A stretch of DNA of 32,000 bases from Gemmatimonadaceae bacterium (lineage in GTDB: Bacteria; Gemmatimonadota; Gemmatimonadetes; Gemmatimonadales; Gemmatimonadaceae), in assembly GCA_051859245.1 (NCBI GenBank), contig JBHYGA010000005.1:814953-846952 (forward strand), read 5' to 3'. Of this stretch, positions 7,003 through 27,585 are shown piece after piece (within the stretch, counting starts at the first letter, position 1; every line of letters starts with the position of its first letter). Under the pieces are notes generated by a model. It ran no database searches and was not told the origin of the DNA. It saw only the letters and a list, made by a program, of their open reading frames with translations. Both the position numbers and the translations under genes were made by a program.

Positions 7003-10000
7003 TCACACAGTGAGGCTGGCCGCGTTGGTTTTGTCAGACGACGTGTGCAACAGCGCATCAAGACGCGCGCTCCACGTGGCGCGAATCGAGGACACATGCT
7101 CGGCCGCGCCTCGCGGCTGCACCTTTCGCCACTGCATGCGCGTGCGCGCCCATCCATCAAGCAGTGCGCGGGCGCGCGGACTGGCGGTGCGCACACGATG
7201 TAGTGCGAGCAATCGCTGCACGAGTGCTTCGTCATGCTCATCCAGATCGGCCAACAGCACCAGATCATGGTTGGTGCGACTGGGCAAGCGACCAGATTCG
7301 TCGAGCACGTAGGCCACGCCGTTTGACATGCCCGCTCCAAAGTTGCGCCCCGTGCGACCAAGCACGGCCACCACGCCACCCGTCATGTACTCACAGGCGT
7401 GATTGCCCACACCTTCAACCACGGCACATGCGCCGGAGTTGCGCACCGCAAATCGATCGCCCGCCTGACCTGCGGCGAGCAACACCCCATCGGTGGCGCC
7501 GTACAGCACCGTATTGCCAACGATCATGTTGAGATGACTGGCCCCGCCGTATCGCGCATTGCGGAACGGACGAATGGTGACTTCACCACCCGTGAGTCCT
7601 TTGGCGACGTAATCGTTGGCCTCGCCCTCCAGCTCGACGTGCATACCACGTATTGCGAAGGCCGCAAAACTCTGGCCGGCGCTTCCCGTGCAGCGAAGCA
7701 TCACGCGCCCCGGTTCGAATCCCGCGTCGCCTTTGTGCTCGGCAATCCAGCCCGCAACACGCGCGCCAACCGCGAGATGGTGATTGCGTACGACGTAGGA
7801 ACCACTAAACGGCGCACCCGACGCGAGCGCCTCCGCCGCATCGGTCAGAATCTGTTCGTCAACGGAGACCACATCCGGTCGTACGTTACGCGCAATCGTG
7901 CGACGTGGCGGCACGCCGTCACGATGCGCCCGCGTGAGCAGGAGCGACAGGTCTAGCATCGCTGATCGCGGCAGCTCGGGATGATCAAGCCGTTCGAGAA
8001 GATCGGCGCGACCGATCAGCTCGTCGAGTGAACGCACACCAATGGCCGCCATCTGTTCGCGCACATCCTGTGCTACATGCGCGAAGTAAGAGATCACATG
8101 CTCGGGCGATCCACGAAACTTTGCCCGCAACTCTTCACGCTGTGTTGCAATGCCGGTCGGGCAGGAGTTCAGATGACATTGACGCGCCATGTCACAGCCA
8201 AGTGCCACCAACGGTGCGGTGCCAAAACCAAAACTCTCGGCGCCAAGCATGGCGGCAATGATGACGTCACGTCCGGTACGAAACCCTCCGTCAACGCGAA
8301 GCTCCAGACGATGTCGCAGCCCGTTCTGCACGAGCACATGCTGCGCTTCGGCGAGTCCAAGTTCCCACGGCGAACCGGCGTGTTTGATGCTGGACAGCGG
8401 CGACGCGCCAGTGCCACCTGCGTGGCCCGCAATCAACACGTAGTCCGCGTACGCTTTCGCAACACCGGCGGCGACCGTGCCAACACCGGCCGATGCCACA
8501 AGCTTCACGCCAATGCGTGCGCGCGGATTCACCGTCTTGAGATCGTGCACCAGCTGCGCGAGATCTTCAATCGAATAAATGTCGTGATGCGGCGGCGGTG
8601 AAATGAGCGACACGCCAATGGTGGAGTGTCGCAAGCGTGCGATCAGCGCGGTGACCTTGTGCGCCGGAAGCTGCCCGCCTTCACCGGGTTTGGCGCCTTG
8701 CACAATCTTGATTTCGATTTCATCGGCGCGCACCAGATATCCGGTGGTCACGCCAAAGCGCCCGGACGCCACCTGCTTGATGCGACTATCCAGGCGGTCG
8801 TCCGTGCTCCCCTCCGTGAGCGGTGTGTACCACGCGGGATCTTCACCGCCTTCACCAGAGTTGCTGCGTGCACCCATGCGGTTCATCGCAACCGTTACGG
8901 CGCTATGTGCTTCCGGCGACAGCGCACCCAACGACATCGCCGACGAAACAAATCGCGTGAGAATATTCGCGATCGGTTCCACGTGATCGATGGCGATGGG
9001 GGCACCTTCACGCACACGGATCAGATCGCGTAGTGAAATCGCCTCACTGCCGGAGGACGAGGCACGAAAGCTTTGCCACGATTCGACGTCCGGGCCACCG
9101 TCTGTGTTGCGAGCCTTTCGTGCGCTGCCCACGGCTAACTGCAGCGCGCGTACCGACGGTGGCGACCACGCGTGCCGTTCGCCCTCTTTGCGAAAGCGCA
9201 CGCGTCCGTGATCAGGAAGCACCAGCTCAGACGACGCATGCGTACCAAACGCAGAGCGATGACGCGCGAGTACGTCTTCGGCGATTTCTCGCAACCCAAT
9301 GCCGCCAACGGGCGACGCAGTACCCGCAAAACAACGGTCAATCACATCGCCACCAAGACCCAGCGCTTCGAACATCTGCGCGCCGCAATACGAAGACAGC
9401 GTGCTGATCCCCATCTTGGCAAGAATCTTGAGCAACCCCTTTTCGAGTGCGGCACGCAGTCGCGACTGCGCCAGCGACGGGCCGGGGCGATCGGCGCTTT
9501 CCTCCTCGCGTCCGTGCGCGACGGTTTCGGAGAAGAGTGTTGCCACCGACTCCATGGCCAGCCATGGAAAGACGGCTTCGGCTCCGTAACCGAACAGTGT
9601 GGCCACGTGATGTTGCTCCACCGCGTCACCCGTTTCGACGACAAGGCCAACCTGCGCACGCAAGCCAATGCGTACCAGATGCTGACGCACCGCGCCGAGC
9701 GCAAGCAGTGAAGGAATCGGTGCGCGATCGGCGCTGACTTTTCGGTCGCTGATAATCAGCAGTCGCACGCCTTTGCCAATCGCTGCTTCAGCGCGACGGC
9801 ACAACGCGTCGAGCACGGAGTCGAGCTCGTCGGCGCGGGACGTTGCCGGCCACGTGGCATCGAGCGTTACCGCCTTGAATCCAGGCACGGAGCGCAGTGC
9901 GGCCATTTCATCGGGAAGCAGTACCGGATGTTCAATACGCAGCTTGCGCGCGAACTCGGCCTTCTCCAGTAACGGCGAACCACGCTGGCCAAGGTGCATG

Positions 10001-18009: not shown

Positions 18010-19605
18010 ATGTCAGACGAACGCCTTTCTCCCTCAGGAATTCCGCTGCCGGTGGCCGCCCGCCCGGCTGACGCGCCCATCGACTACGCCAACGACCTTG
18101 GCGATCCCGGCGTGTTTCCGTACACGCGCGGCGTACAGCCCAACATGTATCGCGGCCGACACTGGACCATGCGCCAGTACGCGGGATTCGGCACGGCGCA
18201 GGCGACCAACACCCGCTTCAAGCTGTTGCTTGAAGCGGGCCAAACCGGTCTGTCGGTGGCGTTCGATCTGCCCACGCAAATGGGGCTCGATTCGAGTGAC
18301 CCACGCGCGCTCGGCGAAGTGGGGCGTGTAGGTGTCGCGATCGACACTGTGGATGACATGCACACATTGCTCGACGGGATTCCGCTCGACAAAGTGTCAA
18401 CATCCATGACGATCAACGCCACGGCCGCGACGTTGCTGGCCATGTACATCGTGGTGGCGGAAGAGCGGGGTATCGCACGCAGCGCACTCTCGGGCACCAC
18501 GCAGAACGATATTCTCAAAGAGTACATCGCGCGCGGTACGTACATTTATCCACCGGCGCCGTCGCTTGCACTCACGGCGGAAACGTTCAGGTTCTGCGCG
18601 CAGGAAGTGCCCAGCTGGAATCCGATTTCCATTTCGGGCTATCACATCCGTGAAGCGGGCAGTACGGCTGTACAGGAAGTGGCGTTCACGTTTGCTGATG
18701 GACTGGCGTACGTGCAACAGGCCATCGATACCGGCCTCGCGGTGGATGATTTTGCACCGCGACTGTCGTTCTTCTTTGCCGCACATAACGATCTGTTCGA
18801 AGAAGTGGCCAAGTTTCGTGCGGCTCGCCGTTTGTGGGCGCGGCTCATGCGCGATCGGTTCTCGGCGAACGAGAAATCATGTCGCCTTCGCTTTCACACA
18901 CAAACGGGTGGTGTTACACTCACCGCGCAGCAGCCGCTGACCAACGTGGTGCGCGTCACGGTGCAAGCGCTTGCCGCGGCGCTCGGTGGCACGCAGTCAC
19001 TGCACACCAACGGCTACGACGAAGCGCTCGCCCTTCCGACGGGTGAATCGGCCACGCTGGCGCTGCGCACGCAGCAGGTGATCGCGTACGAAAGCGGTCT
19101 GGCGCAAACGGTCGATCCACTCGCTGGCAGCTGGTACGTGGAGCAGCTCACCAACGAAATTGAGTCGCGTGCCATGGCGCTGATTACGCACGTCGATGAA
19201 CTCGGCGGCGCCGTGGCTGGCATTGAAGCCGGTTTCTTTCAGGACGAAATCGGACGGAGCGCCTACGCGCAACAACTGCGTATTGAGGCGGGTGAAACGG
19301 TTATCGTTGGCGTTAACAAGTTTGGTGACGGGCAGGATCCCCCAATCATTCCTGCGCCTGATTTCTCCGCGCTTGAACTGGAGCAGGTCGCGCGTTTGCG
19401 CGAGTGCAAGGCACATCGTGATGATGCCGCGGTTCAGCAGTCGTTGTCTGCGCTGCGCGCCGCGGCGCCATCGTATTTGCCGGAGCATATTGGCGAGCGC
19501 ACACATCTCATGCCGCTCGTGATTGACGCGGTACGCGCGCGTGCATCGGTTGGTGAAATCGCTGCGGCGCTTGGTGAGGTGTGGGGGCGCTACCAGCCCG
19601 TGTAG
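18010..19605 (+). CDS. Methylmalonyl-CoA mutase family protein, catalytic (large) domain only
   Basis: Strong acyl-CoA mutase TIM-barrel similarity: [57 protein letters not shown] and RFHTQTGG. About 530 aa with no C-terminal B12-binding domain. ATG at 18010, 8 nt after the esterase stop. Confidence 0.85.
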
Positions 19606-19609
19606 CTGC

Positions 19610-20656
19610 ATGTACACCACCTGTATCTTTTGTCACGCAGCGCTCGGCGCCAACGACGTTATTGAACAGTTCCCTGTTGGCCGTCGCATCGCATTCGACG
19701 CCGATCAGGGTCGCCTGTGGGTCGTGTGTCCCAAGTGTGAACGCTGGAATCTCTCGCCGTTTGAAACACGCTGGGAAGCGATAGAAGAAGCGGAGCGTCA
19801 ATACCGAAATACACGCCGCCGTGTCGCCACCGACAACATTGCCCTCGCGCGTCTGCCTGAGGGACTAGAGCTCGTGCGCATCGGTCGACCGCTCAGACCA
19901 GAGTTTGCGGCGTGGCGATACGGTGATCAGTTCGGACGTCGACGGCGGCGCCTCTTGGGCTATGGCTTGGGAGGGGCGGCATTGGCGGCGGTGGGTGTCG
20001 TCGCCGTCGGACCGGCCGTTGCGGTTGGCGCGGGATTGGGTTTTCTCCCCTCGCTCGTCAACCTCGGCAATACGCTCCTCCATTATTCCCGTCCCGTTGC
20101 GCGTATGCATGACCGCAACGGTGACGTACTCGGACTCACTCGAAACAATCTTGTGCATGCGGAGCTGAGTGTTTTCAGTGAAAACGCGGTCGCGCTCACT
20201 TTCGACCATCGTCGCTTCGCGCGCGACGGTGCACTATCCTCGAGGTTGGGCGTAGCCGGGAAAGGACGCGCCGAGCTACACGGCGACGAGGCACTCCGCG
20301 CGCTCGCCAGTCTGTTGCCCGCGCTTAATCGAAGTGGCGGAAGCGATCGATCCGTAGCACGAGCGGTACACGCAGTAGAAGCGGCGGGGTCAATCGGCAC
20401 GTTGCTACAGCACGCGTCCAATTCTGATCGCCGGTCTCCGCTCAGCGTGGCCGCATGGTCAAGTGGGAGTACGCATCGTCATGCGCTGATCACGTACACC
20501 ACACCCATGCGCCTCGCGCTCGAAATGGCGCTACACGAAGACGATGAACGCCGCGCGATGGCCGGTGAACTCGGCGCGCTCTACGCCCGGTGGGAAGAAG
20601 CCGAGCGTGTGGCCAGGATTGCAGATGGCGAGCTGACGTCACTGCCGAACGCTTAG
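19610..20656 (+). CDS. Uncharacterised zinc-ribbon / hydrophobic-segment protein, paralog 1 of 4
   Basis: Starts MYTTCIFC, 4 nt after the mutase stop. It is co-linear with the three tandem copies: CxxC-x31-CxxC, RWEAIEE, LVRIGRPLxPEFAAWRYG, a Gly/Ala-rich hydrophobic stretch and C-terminal ALEMALHEDDERRAMAGELGALYARWEEAE. The upstream part of the listed ORF (19523-19609) overlaps the mutase gene. Confidence 0.8.
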   Translation: MYTTCIFCHAALGANDVIEQFPVGRRIAFDADQGRLWVVCPKCERWNLSPFETRWEAIEEAERQYRNTRRRVATDNIALARLPEGLELVRIGRPLRPEFAAWRYGDQFGRRRRRLLGYGLGGAALAAVGVVAVGPAVAVGAGLGFLPSLVNLGNTLLHYSRPVARMHDRNGDVLGLTRNNLVHAELSVFSENAVALTFDHRRFARDGALSSRLGVAGKGRAELHGDEALRALASLLPALNRSGGSDRSVARAVHAVEAAGSIGTLLQHASNSDRRSPLSVAAWSSGSTHRHALITYTTPMRLALEMALHEDDERRAMAGELGALYARWEEAERVARIADGELTSLPNA

Positions 20657-23105: not shown

Positions 23106-23963
23106 CTACTTGGCGATCACGCGCCGCTTCATATCGTAACGAGTGCCGGGGCCGAGTTTCACGAACGGCGCTGCTGCTGTCGGTTTGCTCCGATCGTGCA
23201 CCGCCACATCGGCCTTGCCCAGCACTTCAAACGTGTCGCCCTGCACCACGATGGCGGTGCTTTCTGACAATCCGATCCCAATGTATTCGGGGAACTTGTC
23301 CATCACCGGAATCAGATCGTTCCAGCGATTGCGCGCGTCAACGTGCTGGTCAATGGCGGACTTGCGCAGAAAATCGAATGCATCCTGATGCTCCGGTTCC
23401 GGCGCCATCATGATCTGCGGTCCGGCCACCGCACCGCGCACCAGATACGTGCCCTGAATCGTGGCGCCCGCCGAGCTGCCACCGATCACGCCGCCGCGCG
23501 TGAGTACACGGTGAAATGCATGATACGATTTCGTGCCCGCGTACGAGTCCGCAATGTTCCACTGTCGCCCGCCATTAAACCACACGCCTTTGGCGTCGAG
23601 CAGCAGCGAGCTGAACGAATCGGTATCGGCAATCTTTCGGTCATGCGTGTGCAGCATGTGCACGTTGGTGAGACCGCGTGCTTTCCACGACGCGAGCACG
23701 CGCGTTGCGTCGTAGGGAATAAGCGTGCCGTCTGGCCGCGCATTGCCGCCGGCCGTAGGAACGATCACGATCTTTGCATGCGGTCCGCCGGCGAGCTCCA
23801 CAAAACGTTCGATAATGCCGGTGCCGTCCAGCTGTCCGCCCCCCGCAATCACCAGACTTCCGTTCGCTGGGCCGTGAACTGGCGCGTCTTGCGCCGGCAG
23901 TCGCACGCCGAGCAGTAGCAATCCTGTCATCAGTGGGTGCAGCAGTCGTTGCAGGCGTGACAT
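23106..23963 (-). CDS. Secreted peptidase S51 family (cyanophycinase-like)
   Basis: The Met at 23963 gives a signal-like N-terminus MSRLQRLLHPLMTGLLLLGVRLPAQ. The sequence then reads SLVIAGGG and includes the nucleophile motif GGSSAGA typical of cyanophycinase / dipeptidase E-like enzymes. The upstream part of the listed ORF (to 24131) overlaps the divergent paralog gene. Confidence 0.7.
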   Translation of the reverse strand: MSRLQRLLHPLMTGLLLLGVRLPAQDAPVHGPANGSLVIAGGGQLDGTGIIERFVELAGGPHAKIVIVPTAGGNARPDGTLIPYDATRVLASWKARGLTNVHMLHTHDRKIADTDSFSSLLLDAKGVWFNGGRQWNIADSYAGTKSYHAFHRVLTRGGVIGGSSAGATIQGTYLVRGAVAGPQIMMAPEPEHQDAFDFLRKSAIDQHVDARNRWNDLIPVMDKFPEYIGIGLSESTAIVVQGDTFEVLGKADVAVHDRSKPTAAAPFVKLGPGTRYDMKRRVIAK

Positions 23964-24087
23964 GCAGTCGCTCGGAGATGCGGTGTGGGTTATGGTCGGG
24001 CTCGCTCTCAATGATGGCGTGACGGCACCGTGACGTCCAGCGATGTGGGCTCTTGTTCTGATCGTGCCTGCGCACGAAGTTGCCACG

Positions 24088-25113
24088 GTGTTTGCGACCT
24101 GCCTCTTCTGCCACAGTTCGCTCGGCGCCAATCAGAGCATCGAGCACTTCCCGGTGGGCAAACGTCTCGCGTTCGATGCGGAGCGGGGCCGGCTCTGGGC
24201 CGTGTGTCTGCGATGTGGGCGGTGGAACCTGTCGCCGCTTGAGGAACGATGGGAGGCGATTGAGGAGTGCGAGCGCGCGTATCGCGGCACCACGCAGCGC
24301 GTGTCGACGGACAACATCGCGTTGGCCCGCCTCAAGGATGGCACCGATTTGGTGCGCATCGGGCGTCCGTTGTTGCCGGAGTTCGCGGCGTGGCGGTACG
24401 GAGATCAGCTGGGGGTGCGGCGTAAACGGCATAACGCCATCGCAACAATTGGCGGCATCTCAAGCTTAGGGCACTTCGGTTTGGTAGGGTTGATGGCAGC
24501 AGATGTCGTCACCGGCGCGGGTTTCTCAATGCTTTCCATCGGCATCAACACCGTGTCGATAGCGGCGGGGAAAAAGCAGGATCGTCCGGTAACGCACGTG
24601 GCCGTGCCCGGTGTCGCACGCCTGCCCATGCGTGCGATTGAGTCTTACGACACAACGGTATCGTTCGACAATGACCGGCAGATGCGGCTCCACGTGACAC
24701 TCCGCGTACCCCGGGCTCGGCTGCGTTTCTTCAGTGCGAAACAGCGTTTCACGCTCACGGGGGACGCGGCACGCAAGGGCCTGAGCAGCGCGATTGTTGG
24801 CGTGAACCATCGAGGAGCAAAGAACGCAGAAGTGAAGGCCGCGGTCGCGGAAGCAGAGCGTTCCACAACGGCGCAGACGTTGCTCGATCGTTTCGCGGAG
24901 AACGCCCGCAACAGCTCGGAGTTCTACCCCGGCGTTCTCGCTCACAAGCCCCCCGAACAACGCTTCGCCCTCGAAATGTTGCTCCACGAAGAAGACGAAC
25001 GTCGCGCCATGGCGGGCGAACTCGGCGACCTCTACGCGCGTTGGCAAGACGCCGAGCGCATCGCTAACATCGCTGACGCCGAGCTTACACCACTGCCGAG
25101 CAACGAGTCGTAA
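24088..25113 (+). CDS. Uncharacterised zinc-ribbon / hydrophobic-segment protein, paralog 2 of 4 (first of tandem trio)
   Basis: The GTG at 24088 gives VFATCLFC, aligned with the first residues of the other three copies. The ATG at 24043 adds 15 residues that no paralog has. It shows the same N- and C-terminal conserved modules and ends with TAA at 25111-25113. Confidence 0.8.
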   Translation: MFATCLFCHSSLGANQSIEHFPVGKRLAFDAERGRLWAVCLRCGRWNLSPLEERWEAIEECERAYRGTTQRVSTDNIALARLKDGTDLVRIGRPLLPEFAAWRYGDQLGVRRKRHNAIATIGGISSLGHFGLVGLMAADVVTGAGFSMLSIGINTVSIAAGKKQDRPVTHVAVPGVARLPMRAIESYDTTVSFDNDRQMRLHVTLRVPRARLRFFSAKQRFTLTGDAARKGLSSAIVGVNHRGAKNAEVKAAVAEAERSTTAQTLLDRFAENARNSSEFYPGVLAHKPPEQRFALEMLLHEEDERRAMAGELGDLYARWQDAERIANIADAELTPLPSNES

Positions 25114-25116
25114 CGC

Positions 25117-26130
25117 GTGTTCGCCACCTGTTTGTTCTGTCTGAAGTCGCTCGGTGCAAACCAGCGCATCGAGCACTTCCCGATCGGCCGTCGTCTCGCG
25201 TTCGATGCGGAACGCGGTCGACTCTGGGCCGTGTGCACGAAGTGTGGCCGCTGGAATCTCACGCCACTCGAGGAACGGTGGGAAGCGATTGAGGAGTGTG
25301 AGCGGGCGTATCGCGCTGAGCGTCGTCGTGTGTCGACCGATCACATTGGTCTCGCGCGACTAAACGAGGGTACGGATCTTGTGCGTATCGGCCAACCGTT
25401 GCTGCCAGAGTTCGCGGCGTGGCGCTACGGTGAGCAACTGCGCAGCAGGCGAAAACGCTGGCTTTGGACCACGGCACTCGTGGCGGGCGCACCAGTGGCG
25501 ATTCTCGCACTGCAAGGATTCGCCCTCTACCATTGGCTGGGCGTAGGCGCGTTGACCTTGGGTGGCGCGCAGATTGGCCAGAGCGTGTCTACGTTGATCG
25601 AAGCGCGTCGTCCTATCGGCAAGATCAGGCTGCCAGATGGAACGGTGGAGCCCATGATGGCGCGACACCTCGACGCGTCAGTGATCAACGTGAGCCCCGA
25701 AGGCGACGTCAACGCTGAGATTCACTATCGCGAGCGCAGTCGCCTCGGGCCACTCACCGCGATCGATCGGGTGTTGCGAGTGAGTGGGCCTGAGGCACGA
25801 CCAGTGCTTCGTGATGTGATGCCCGTGTTCAACGGCGCCGGCGGAAGCCGCCTTGAGGTGCATGAAGCAGTGCAGACCGTGCAGCACGTGGGCGACGAAC
25901 TCACACTGCTCAAGCGCTACGGCGCGCATCGGCTCAATCCAGAACGCCGGAGTGGTGCCCTCAGCACATCGCGCTTCTACCTGGCCCTTGAAATGCTGCT
26001 CCACGAAGAAGACGAGCGCCGCGCCATGGCCGGCGAACTCGGAGAACTCTACGCGCGCTGGGAAGACGCCGAACGCATTGCCAAGATCGCGGACGGAGAG
26101 CTCACGGTACTCGCGAACAGCGAGACATAA
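25117..26130 (+). CDS. Uncharacterised zinc-ribbon / hydrophobic-segment protein, paralog 3 of 4
   Basis: GTG start 3 nt after the previous stop (TAACGCGTG). N-terminus MFATCLFCLKSLGANQRIEHFPIGRRLAFDAERGRLWAVCTKCGRWNL. C-terminus ALEMLLHEEDERRAMAGELGELYARWEDAERIAKIADGELT. Confidence 0.85.
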   Translation: MFATCLFCLKSLGANQRIEHFPIGRRLAFDAERGRLWAVCTKCGRWNLTPLEERWEAIEECERAYRAERRRVSTDHIGLARLNEGTDLVRIGQPLLPEFAAWRYGEQLRSRRKRWLWTTALVAGAPVAILALQGFALYHWLGVGALTLGGAQIGQSVSTLIEARRPIGKIRLPDGTVEPMMARHLDASVINVSPEGDVNAEIHYRERSRLGPLTAIDRVLRVSGPEARPVLRDVMPVFNGAGGSRLEVHEAVQTVQHVGDELTLLKRYGAHRLNPERRSGALSTSRFYLALEMLLHEEDERRAMAGELGELYARWEDAERIAKIADGELTVLANSET

Positions 26131-26133
26131 CGC

Positions 26134-27156
26134 GTGTTCGCAACCTGTCTTTTTTGCCTCAAACCGCTCGGTGCCAACCAGCGCATCGAACATTTTCCGA
26201 TCGGGCGTCGCCTGGCATTCGATGCCGACCGTGGTCGTCTCTGGGCGGTGTGCACACACTGCGGACGCTGGAACCTCACACCGCTCGAAGAACGGTGGGA
26301 AGCCATTGAGGAATGTGAACGTGCGTATCGCGACGAACGTCGTCGCGTGTCAACGGATCACATTGGCCTCGCGCGTTTGAACGACGGCACGGACCTGGTG
26401 CGCATTGGTCAACCGTTGCTGCCGGAGTTCGCGGCGTGGCGGTATGGCGAACAGTTGCGCCGTCGGGGCAAAAAGTTCGCAGCGAAGTTCGCGCTCGTGA
26501 GCGCCGCGCCGGTGGCACTCGCCGCTGGGTCACTGCTGGCGGGGAGACACTGGTTCGGCGTTGGCATGGCTTCGATCAGCGCGGTGCAGCTGACACAACT
26601 TGCCACCTCCTTCTATCAAGCTTCGCGCCCTGTTGGCCGTATCAAACTTGCCGACGGCACGCTTCAGCCGGTGAACATGCGACAAGTCGCCGCCTCCGTC
26701 ATCAGCGCGACACCAGAAGGCGAGATCGACGCGAAAATTCACTTTGGTACGCGCGGCCGAACGAGTGCGTTCAAGGCGAACGATCGCGTCCTGCATGTGA
26801 GCGGGCCTGAGGCTCGGCCGGTTTTGCGCGACGTGATTCACCTCTTCAACTATGCCGGCGCGAGTCGCCTCTCAGCGCACGAGGCGGTGCAAACCGTGCA
26901 GGAAGTGGGCGACGAACTCTCGCTGATCAAACGCTACAGCGCGCACCGAGTACGGCCCGAGCGAGGACGGGGCGCGATCCACAATGGCAGTTTCTACCTC
27001 GCCCTCGAAATGCTCCTCCACGAAGAAGACGAACGCCGCGCCATGGCCGGCGAGCTCGGCGAACTCTATGCCCGCTGGGAAGACGCCGAGCGCATCGCCA
27101 AAATCGTGGATGGCGAGCTCACGCCGCTGGGCACCAGCCCGGCCGCTCGCAGTTGA
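26134..27156 (+). CDS. Uncharacterised zinc-ribbon / hydrophobic-segment protein, paralog 4 of 4
   Basis: It has the identical junction TAACGCGTG and a GTG start. It is co-linear with paralog 3 along the whole length and is its closest relative. Differences in the conserved ends are overwhelmingly synonymous. Confidence 0.85.
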   Translation: MFATCLFCLKPLGANQRIEHFPIGRRLAFDADRGRLWAVCTHCGRWNLTPLEERWEAIEECERAYRDERRRVSTDHIGLARLNDGTDLVRIGQPLLPEFAAWRYGEQLRRRGKKFAAKFALVSAAPVALAAGSLLAGRHWFGVGMASISAVQLTQLATSFYQASRPVGRIKLADGTLQPVNMRQVAASVISATPEGEIDAKIHFGTRGRTSAFKANDRVLHVSGPEARPVLRDVIHLFNYAGASRLSAHEAVQTVQEVGDELSLIKRYSAHRVRPERGRGAIHNGSFYLALEMLLHEEDERRAMAGELGELYARWEDAERIAKIVDGELTPLGTSPAARS

Positions 27157-27219: not shown

Positions 27220-27585
27220 ATGCCGACTTACGAGTTTCGTTGTCCCGACGGCACGATCGTCGAAAAGTTCTTCAAAATCTCCGAAGTGCCAGACACTATT
27301 CCGTCGCCCAAGGGCGACGGCGACGCGGTGCGCATGATCACCGGCGGCGCGGGTCTCGTGTTCAAGGGCTCCGGCTTTTACATCACGGATTACGGCAAGG
27401 ACGGCAAGAAGGATCAGCGCGCCGCGCCGTCGACCACCAAGTCGGAGAGCGCGAGCTCGTTGTCGACGTCATCCGACGCGGCGCCTGCGGCCAAGTCTGA
27501 TGCGAAGTCCGCGAGTGACTCCACGCCCAAGAGTGACAAGCCGGCCGCCGCAAGCACGCCGGCCACGCCGCCCAAAAAGGACTGA
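27220..27585 (+). CDS. FmdB-family-like small protein with degenerate zinc ribbon and Ser/Ala/Lys-rich tail
   Basis: MPTYEFRC ... VFKGSGFYITDYGK matches the ends of the FmdB/CxxC_CxxC_SSSS family. Only one of the four expected Cys remains (CPDG and PSPKGDG replace the CxxC knuckles). The C-terminal ~55 residues are low complexity. Confidence 0.65.
   Translation: MPTYEFRCPDGTIVEKFFKISEVPDTIPSPKGDGDAVRMITGGAGLVFKGSGFYITDYGKDGKKDQRAAPSTTKSESASSLSTSSDAAPAAKSDAKSASDSTPKSDKPAAASTPATPPKKD

Follow-up and report, generated by a model that had tools for sequence, protein, structure and literature searches.

What keeps the two ends of tandemly duplicated genes almost identical at the protein level while the middle of the same genes drifts apart: recent gene conversion between the copies, or purifying selection? 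The question is raised by a stretch of 32,000 nucleotides (hereafter the window; GC content about 62%) from contig JBHYGA010000005.1 of a Gemmatimonadaceae bacterium. Four paralogous genes are found there, all on the plus strand: a copy that we call A, then a head-to-tail trio, B-C-D. The last two genes, C (25117..26130, 337 amino acids) and D (26134..27156, 340 amino acids), each start with a GTG located 3 nucleotides past the stop codon of the preceding copy. A preliminary description of the locus, centered on C and D, had argued for purifying selection. Our analysis leads to the same answer: with a probability of roughly 0.8, A to D are four old tandem paralogs encoding a Gemmatimonadota-specific, uncharacterized protein, the ends of which are held by purifying selection in an array subject to birth-and-death evolution.

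A codon alignment of C and D shows, over the first 66 codons, 29 codons that differ only synonymously and three replacements (S11P, E32D and K42H), exactly the figures that had been counted by hand. The C-terminal helix follows the same pattern: the two strings quoted in the preliminary description, at 25984-26019 in C and 27001-27036 in D, each start at codon 290 and translate to the same peptide, ALEMLLHEEDER. Differences at codon positions 1/2/3 amount to 8/1/54 in the N-terminal 112 codons and 2/3/16 in codons 284-330, compared with 60/44/99 in the center. Counted as nonsynonymous to synonymous differences (Nd:Sd), this gives 14:70 for the ends versus 121:83 for the center (Fisher test, p=1.4e-11). 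The ends are thus nearly frozen at the protein level while the hydrophobic segment and the center are far more diverged, as had been claimed, and the center diverges further still when other copies are considered: its identity is 52% between C and D and 20-26% in pairs involving A or B.

Purifying selection on the ends is equally apparent from substitution rates. The ratio of nonsynonymous to synonymous substitutions per site (dN/dS) is 0.024 in the N-terminus (codons 1-112; dN 0.036, dS 1.55) and 0.095 in the C-terminus (dN 0.079, dS 0.83), versus 0.29 in the center (dN 0.41, dS 1.44). We also computed the proportions of synonymous (pS) and nonsynonymous (pN) differences by the Nei-Gojobori method (NG86) on an independent alignment based on hidden Markov models, separate from that used for dS and dN. 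From N-terminus to center to C-terminus, pS is 0.65, 0.62 and 0.48 and pN is 0.036, 0.321 and 0.044; divergence at fourfold degenerate sites is 0.51 (29/57), 0.53 (32/60) and 0.32 (7/22). Silent divergence is therefore homogeneous along the gene pair (Fisher test, p=0.66 for N-terminus versus center and p=0.17 for C-terminus versus center) whereas pN is strongly heterogeneous, the center exceeding the ends about 9-fold (p=4.5e-21 against the N-terminus and 5.3e-11 against the C-terminus).

A sliding profile of dN/dS in 30-codon windows, the check that had been proposed for this locus, is far from flat. Values are 0.01-0.03 over the N-terminal module (codons 1-110), 0.4-0.5 over the hydrophobic segment (codons ~111-165), 0.3-0.5 over the beta part of the center (codons ~171-230) and 0.06-0.2 over its helical part (codons ~231-270); they rise again in the linker and fall below 0.1 in the C-terminal helix. 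Rates thus vary within the center: evolution is fast in the linker, in the beta part and in the hydrophobic hairpin, and the helical sub-domain (codons ~224-272) is moderately conserved. Overall, the center diverges under relaxed constraint, yet is still under purifying selection (dN/dS 0.13-0.3), and positive selection finds no support in these alignments.

Recent gene conversion between C and D, which the preliminary description had rejected, would be expected to leave its trace at silent sites. The silent divergence of the ends is as high as that of the center (see the pS values above), the longest identical nucleotide stretch shared by C and D is 20 nucleotides, and a run-length permutation test on synonymous codons revealed no conversion tract between the two genes (longest run 9 codons, p=0.27). 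Comparisons of pS and of identical runs do detect conversion in the arrays of two other loci of the family, L062 and L077, and are therefore able to detect it in the window. The ends of C and D are nearly identical because purifying selection removes replacements there, their silent sites having drifted to near saturation.

How old, then, is the duplication? We recovered the syntenic loci of relatives (L001 to L005 and others), at a site delimited by the methylmalonyl-CoA mutase (MCM) gene on one side and by a Zn_ribbon_8 gene and the arginyl-tRNA synthetase (ArgRS) gene on the other. L005 has both C and D, L003 has a partial B together with C and D, and L004 has B and D only; L001 and L002 have B and one C/D-like copy, L001 also having A and L002 beginning inside B. 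The claim of an old duplication is borne out, as separate C-type and D-type orthologs are present in L003 and L005 and copies cluster by ortholog, not by genome. A neighbor-joining tree resolves A, B, C and D as orthogroups and shows expansions specific to the lineages of L006 and L007; the single pre-duplication copy of L008/L009 is sister to C+D. The ArgRS dS among the window genome and its relatives ranges from 0.45 to 1.07, and from 0.6 to 1.07 among the genomes with distinct C and D orthologs; together with these separate orthologs, this places the C/D duplication before splits at dS ~0.9-1.0. C and D arose once the L008/L009 lineage had branched off, but before L003 did.

Ortholog comparisons tell the same story at the level of each module. 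N-terminal pS is 0.45 between the C copies of the window and L005 and 0.51 between the D copies of the window and L003, versus 0.65 between C and D of the window. C-type and D-type copies can be told apart in every genome. In the center, identity reaches 80-88% among D-type copies and 87% between the C copies of the window and L005; it is 66-68% between C and the more distant L003, and about 50% between types. Comparison with related arrays, another check suggested at the outset, yields the same profile as the paralogs: ortholog dN/dS is 0.01-0.07 in the N-terminus, 0.13-0.34 in the center and 0.03-0.2 in the C-terminus. The center therefore evolves faster at every depth and is not merely older.

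Silent sites of orthologs also vary along the locus. The B center (window 24424-24900), compared with L001 8972-9997 and L004 3059-4099, shows a pN of 0.25-0.46 and a fourfold-site divergence of 0.62-0.64; the B ends and ArgRS are at the species level, with corresponding values of 0.014-0.05 and 0.31-0.50. Such a contrast suggests that the central segment of B either evolves very rapidly or has been replaced by recombination. In A (19610-20656 versus L001 4466-5512), fourfold-site divergence is 0.49 in the N-terminus versus 0.31 in the center, and in the D copies of L005 (1046-2068) and L004 (4103-5125) it is 0.46 versus 0.21. The baseline of the flanking genes itself varies from 0.35 to 0.52. 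We had considered a general elevation of ortholog dS at the conserved ends; with fourfold sites and flank baselines taken into account, this candidate gave way to heterogeneous histories that mostly fall within 0.35-0.52, and the B center alone stands out from the flank baseline among ortholog comparisons. Silent-site histories thus appear mosaic along the locus, judging from these alignments.

Copy number at the syntenic site varies from one to five. In L055 and L067, the mutase gene and Zn_ribbon_8/ArgRS flank one copy; the site grew to three to five copies in the clade of the window and, independently, in L006 and L007. Other members of the family are located at other housekeeping loci.

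Recombination does occur elsewhere in the family. We surveyed 63 within-locus paralog pairs from 88 loci for conversion and found several homogenized pairs; those cited here have an N-terminal pS of 0.23-0.38 versus 0.51-0.74 in the center. In L062 (6946-7998 / 8001-9071), pS is 0.23 in the N-terminus versus 0.67 in the center (p=1.3e-10), with an identical run of 77 nucleotides; in L077 (4875-6002 / 8001-9050), it is 0.27 versus 0.51, with an identical run of 68 nucleotides. The pairs L006_7774/10001 and L007_8960/10001 have homogenized N-terminal blocks too. The conclusion that conversion is absent is thus limited to the copies of the window, and the family as a whole follows a mixed regime.

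Fusion is also observed. The single C/D-like copy of L001 (10001-11023; L002 771-1793) is a hybrid with a C-type center and a D-type tail (ERGRGAIHNGSFY...NPPGRS): diagnostic sites are of C type from alignment columns ~167 to 285 and of D type from column 309 on (7/7 sites), which places the crossover between C codons ~258 and 282-284, an interval reaching from just upstream to just downstream of the linker. Since L001 is nested in a clade carrying both C and D, the hybrid is the product of a secondary unequal crossover that turned two genes into one.

Other copies are broken or decaying. In L088 (5191-6210) and L089 (4380-5399), an in-frame TAA located in or beside the disordered linker breaks up a member, and an ATG follows 10 codons further on; gene calls there give a 259-amino acid body and a separate 69-amino acid open reading frame (ORF) containing only the helix, identically in the two assemblies. 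Either the gene has been split and still functions, or it may be a recent pseudogene. Remnants include helix-only ORFs in L090 (6001-6192), near a BglII-type restriction-modification pair and a fragment of a transposase gene; what a deletion left of a member amid toxin-antitoxin genes in L091 (4500-5478); a copy with a frameshift in L092 (4182-5287), from a long-read assembly of low coverage; and a 32-amino acid N-terminal fragment in L088 (3594-3692). A query with the motif of the C-terminal helix matched about 250 ORFs of 43-74 amino acids, which raised the possibility of a free-standing family of small helix proteins; the five loci inspected all proved to be degraded or interrupted genes, and we dropped this candidate.

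Taken together, these observations show an array under birth-and-death evolution: copies are born by tandem duplication, unequal crossover removes some of them or fuses them in relatives, and the copies then diverge independently. In the window, replacements in the terminal modules are purged by purifying selection while silent sites have drifted to near saturation; the hairpin, the beta part of the center and the linker tolerate 5-10 times more replacements, in paralogs and orthologs alike.

Three other explanations have to be weighed against this scenario. Under concerted evolution, recurrent conversion between tandem copies would keep the ends alike, the center being too diverged to recombine. 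The N-terminal homogenization of L062, L077, L006_7774/10001 and L007_8960/10001 and the C/D crossover hybrid of L001 show that such exchanges happen in this family, and in the window itself B and C have in common a run of 13 identical synonymous codons (codons 16-31, p=0.006, uncorrected, in six tests) and the C-terminal pS is slightly low. Yet the ends of the window copies match the center in silent divergence, near saturation; the longest identical C/D run is that of 20 nucleotides, with a permutation p of 0.27; C and D are each nearer to their own orthologs at silent sites than to each other; and the ends are equally conserved at single-copy loci with no donor nearby. As the main cause in the window, concerted evolution is already refuted, and we regard it as very improbable. 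That the ORFs are an artefact, non-coding or read in the wrong frame, with a third-position periodicity produced by GC-rich composition, is refuted as well and deserves next to no credence. Long antisense ORFs do overlap the genes (24526-25344 and 25678-26259, minus strand), which is usual at 62% GC; a third one, also on the minus strand, extends over 23641-24432, and such ORFs over the paralogs are 193-272 amino acids long. They are the shadow ORFs commonly seen in GC-rich DNA, and their conservation across loci mirrors that of the sense gene. The antisense frames had been excluded as coding from the start, rightly so: plus frame 0 alone is stop-free, with 94% amino acid identity between C and D, the other five frames having stops. 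Thousands of full-length homologs, a confident structure model and a syntenic position in relatives further argue against an artefact.

A cassette-type diversification, in which the center would be under diversifying selection and exchanged by recombination through the conserved ends acting as homology arms, is improbable, though less so than the two previous alternatives. It draws on the B center, which has reached saturation between close relatives, whose fourfold-site divergence exceeds that of the ends (0.62-0.64 versus 0.31-0.50, p=0.0004-0.02) and whose pN of 0.25-0.46 compares with 0.014-0.017 for ArgRS; on the heterogeneous dS along A and D orthologs; on the intragenic recombination documented in the family; and on windowed pN/pS values of 0.8-1.3 in the A hairpin and ~0.8 in the C linker. 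However, the center has a region-wide dN/dS of 0.13-0.34 in all ortholog pairs, which indicates purifying selection, and the C and D centers are stable among orthologs (80-88% identity among closer relatives; 66-68% for the C center against L003). The protein appears mostly cytoplasmic from its sequence, the loci lie amid housekeeping genes with no mobile or defense context, and a flank baseline of 0.35-0.52 leaves the B signal only moderately above background.

What kind of protein is under such constraint? An AlphaFold2 (AF2) model was obtained with a mean predicted local distance difference test (pLDDT) of 84.6 and a predicted template modeling score (pTM) of 0.71. It opens with the zinc-ribbon region (residues 1-50), whose beta strands are typical of a ribbon, followed by a helix at 54-67 and a beta hairpin at 71-91. 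Two helices, one long (101-141) and one short (149-163), then run through a hydrophobic stretch rich in Gly and Ala. Next come a beta unit of five strands (166-223) and three helices (224-272); a linker modeled with low confidence leads to the two terminal helices (284-295 and 297-328). The architecture thus reads, in order, zinc ribbon, hydrophobic hairpin, alpha/beta central domain and highly charged C-terminal helix. In 119 sequences, the cysteines of the motif C5-x2-C8...C40-x2-C43 (C5, C8, C40 and C43) are invariant; the total of such positions is about 40, most of them clustered in the two ends. The N-terminal ~112 amino acids are predicted to form a four-cysteine zinc-ribbon domain. The hydrophobic stretch, about 45 amino acids long with basic residues on both flanks, probably forms a two-helix hairpin anchoring the protein in the inner membrane, both flanks being cytoplasmic.

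On the plus strand of C, the modules map as follows. The conserved N-terminal module (CxxC-x31-CxxC zinc ribbon, helix and beta hairpin) occupies codons 1-112 (25452 being its last position from 25117), and the hydrophobic segment, rich in Gly and Ala and flanked by basic residues, codons 113-163 (25453..25605); the latter is the fastest-evolving part, with a dN/dS of ~0.4-0.5. The confidently modeled central alpha/beta domain covers codons 164-272 (25606..25932), the variable linker of low model confidence codons 273-283 (25933..25965), and the conserved charged C-terminal helices, LALEMLLHEEDERRAMAGELGELYARWEDAERIAKIADGEL, codons 284-328 (25966..26100; pN 0.044 and pS 0.48 versus D). In D, on the same strand, the conserved N-terminal Zn-ribbon module (codons 1-112) lies at 26134..26469, the hydrophobic segment (codons 113-163) at 26470..26622, the central domain with the linker (codons 164-283) at 26623..26982 and the conserved C-terminal helices (codons 284-328) at 26983..27117.

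The family is large and uniform in length, with more than 7,236 matches, all labeled hypothetical, and about 2,640 clusters at 50% identity; the 150 best listed clusters comprise proteins of 325-429 amino acids with full-length coverage. It occurs in Gemmatimonadales and Longimicrobiales. We read taxonomic labels on 80 listed loci, of which three are labeled 'bacterium' alone. The sole label from another phylum among these is that of L010 (JAWXBD010000107.1, 4730-7910), a metagenome-assembled genome (MAG) attributed to Phycisphaerae; this 8.7-kb contig carries fragmented or frameshifted copies 62% identical to C, and is probably a mis-binned Gemmatimonadales contig. The family is restricted to Gemmatimonadota and has a single architecture, typically with several copies per genome and often at a conserved core-genome site. 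Over the 88 loci, recurrent neighbors are housekeeping genes (IscS-like, MnmA, SDF, ArgRS and others); the top neighbor clusters (1-3) correspond to the family gene read in other frames. The literature on signature proteins of Gemmatimonadetes, searched together with the helix motif strings, contained nothing relevant that we could find.

Besides the B/C run, which could be at most a short, old conversion patch, several points weigh against our reading or loosen it. The C-terminal dS of C/D is 0.83 compared with ~1.5 elsewhere, a difference that is not significant, and the C-terminal pS of window pairs is consistently somewhat lower (0.44-0.53), which may reflect constraint on codons or an ancient conversion since erased in part. 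Since dS is near saturation, absolute dN/dS values and dating are rough. At the protein level, the second hydrophobic helix is weakly hydrophobic, and an alternative single-pass topology that would place the center outside the cytoplasm leaves some uncertainty. Pfam (E<=1) and NCBIfam scans of all four proteins returned no relevant family, and anti-phage defense profiles of PADLOC-DB returned 0 families for the four; phmmer and hmmsearch against PDB sequences gave nothing under E=0.06, with weak matches to designed helical repeats only; Foldseek searches of the AF2 model gave no significant match, the best being at E=0.35 in the PDB and, among the predicted viral folds of BFVD, at E=1.1e-3 with a TM score of 0.15; and clustering of neighbors over the 88 loci revealed no universal partner gene. 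The idea that the ends are a docking interface, considered below, is drawn solely from the conservation pattern.

With these points in mind, the Zn-ribbon module and the C-terminal helix may form a common docking or assembly interface, whether with one another, with other paralogs or with a shared partner, and the central domain may carry paralog-specific specificity. A bolder and rather unlikely extension would make these proteins subunits of a membrane-anchored modular assembly of a fold without known relative, in which the ends would dock and interchangeable centers, exchanged now and then by recombination through the conserved ends, would confer a paralog-specific and partly strain-specific specificity; if true, this would be a new kind of diversified adaptor system in the core genome. 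The pattern itself is real but ordinary. It provides a clean textbook case of domain-specific purifying selection on old tandem duplicates, with converted arrays elsewhere in the family as controls. Its wider value is modest and lies in drawing attention to a large phylum-restricted family without annotation, Pfam model or structural relative. The extreme constraint on the terminal modules (dN/dS ~0.02) points to an important role in Gemmatimonadota, and it would be reasonable to create a Pfam entry for the family.

The remainder of the locus can be described briefly. Of the four copies, paralog A (19610..20656, plus strand, 348 amino acids) diverges most, and its orthologs form a separate group across genera; it starts 4 nucleotides past the stop codon (TAG) of the methylmalonyl-CoA mutase gene. 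Between A and B lie a DUF5916-like gene and a Peptidase_S51 gene, and B (24088..25113, plus strand, 341 amino acids, GTG start) heads the tandem trio. The B/C junction (25111-25119) and the C/D junction (26128-26136) have the same sequence, TAA-CGC-GTG, and the mutase/A junction is at 19603-19612. The spacing within B-C-D and the mutase/A junction suggest an operon organization with translational coupling and, possibly, co-expression of B-C-D. Simple promoter and terminator scans came out at or under the shuffled expectation. Downstream of D are the Zn_ribbon_8 gene (27220-27585) and then ArgRS. The former is FmdB-like and carries a long low-complexity tail rich in Ser, Ala, Lys and Pro; it is syntenic with ArgRS in all related loci that reach beyond the array.

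Several known systems invite comparison with these proteins. Like Zn_ribbon_8/FmdB proteins (PF09723), they have an N-terminal pair of CxxC motifs; unlike them, they match no such profile and reach ~340 amino acids, with membrane, alpha/beta and helical modules. They loosely resemble the membrane-anchored zinc-binding anti-sigma (ZAS) factors (zf-HC2, PF13490), which also combine a cytoplasmic N-terminal zinc module, a membrane segment and a variable C-terminal domain and also occur as multiple paralogs per genome. However, the motif here is CxxC-x31-CxxC instead of the HxxxCxxC of ZAS factors, no Pfam match is obtained at E<=1, and no gene for an extracytoplasmic function (ECF) sigma factor is adjacent at any examined locus. 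The present proteins also have an extra invariant C-terminal helix and, judging from their sequence, a probable hairpin that would leave the variable domain in the cytoplasm.

Gene families with conserved flanks and a variable center maintained by gene conversion are known in Anaplasma (msp2/p44), Neisseria (pilE/pilS) and Borrelia (vlsE). The array of the window resembles them in that several linked copies each have a divergent middle between conserved 5' and 3' blocks. It differs in that every one of its four copies is a full gene, from start to stop codon, and none is a silent truncated cassette, that silent sites of the conserved blocks are saturated and these blocks free of conversion tracts, that the center is under purifying selection, and that the protein is not evidently surface-exposed. 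Nor does the window show the hallmarks of concerted evolution: the ends of C and D lack near-zero synonymous divergence and long identical tracts, which L062 and L077 do display, and the tree and pS matrices group the paralogs of the window with their orthologs and not within the genome. The model of a tandem family under birth-and-death evolution accounts best for what we observe: orthogroup clades, one to five copies, lineage-specific duplications, a hybrid and degraded remnants, together with conserved domains of low dN/dS next to a relaxed domain. Compared with this model, nothing in the array is unusual, and the sporadic N-terminal conversion seen in some genomes amounts to a mixed regime.

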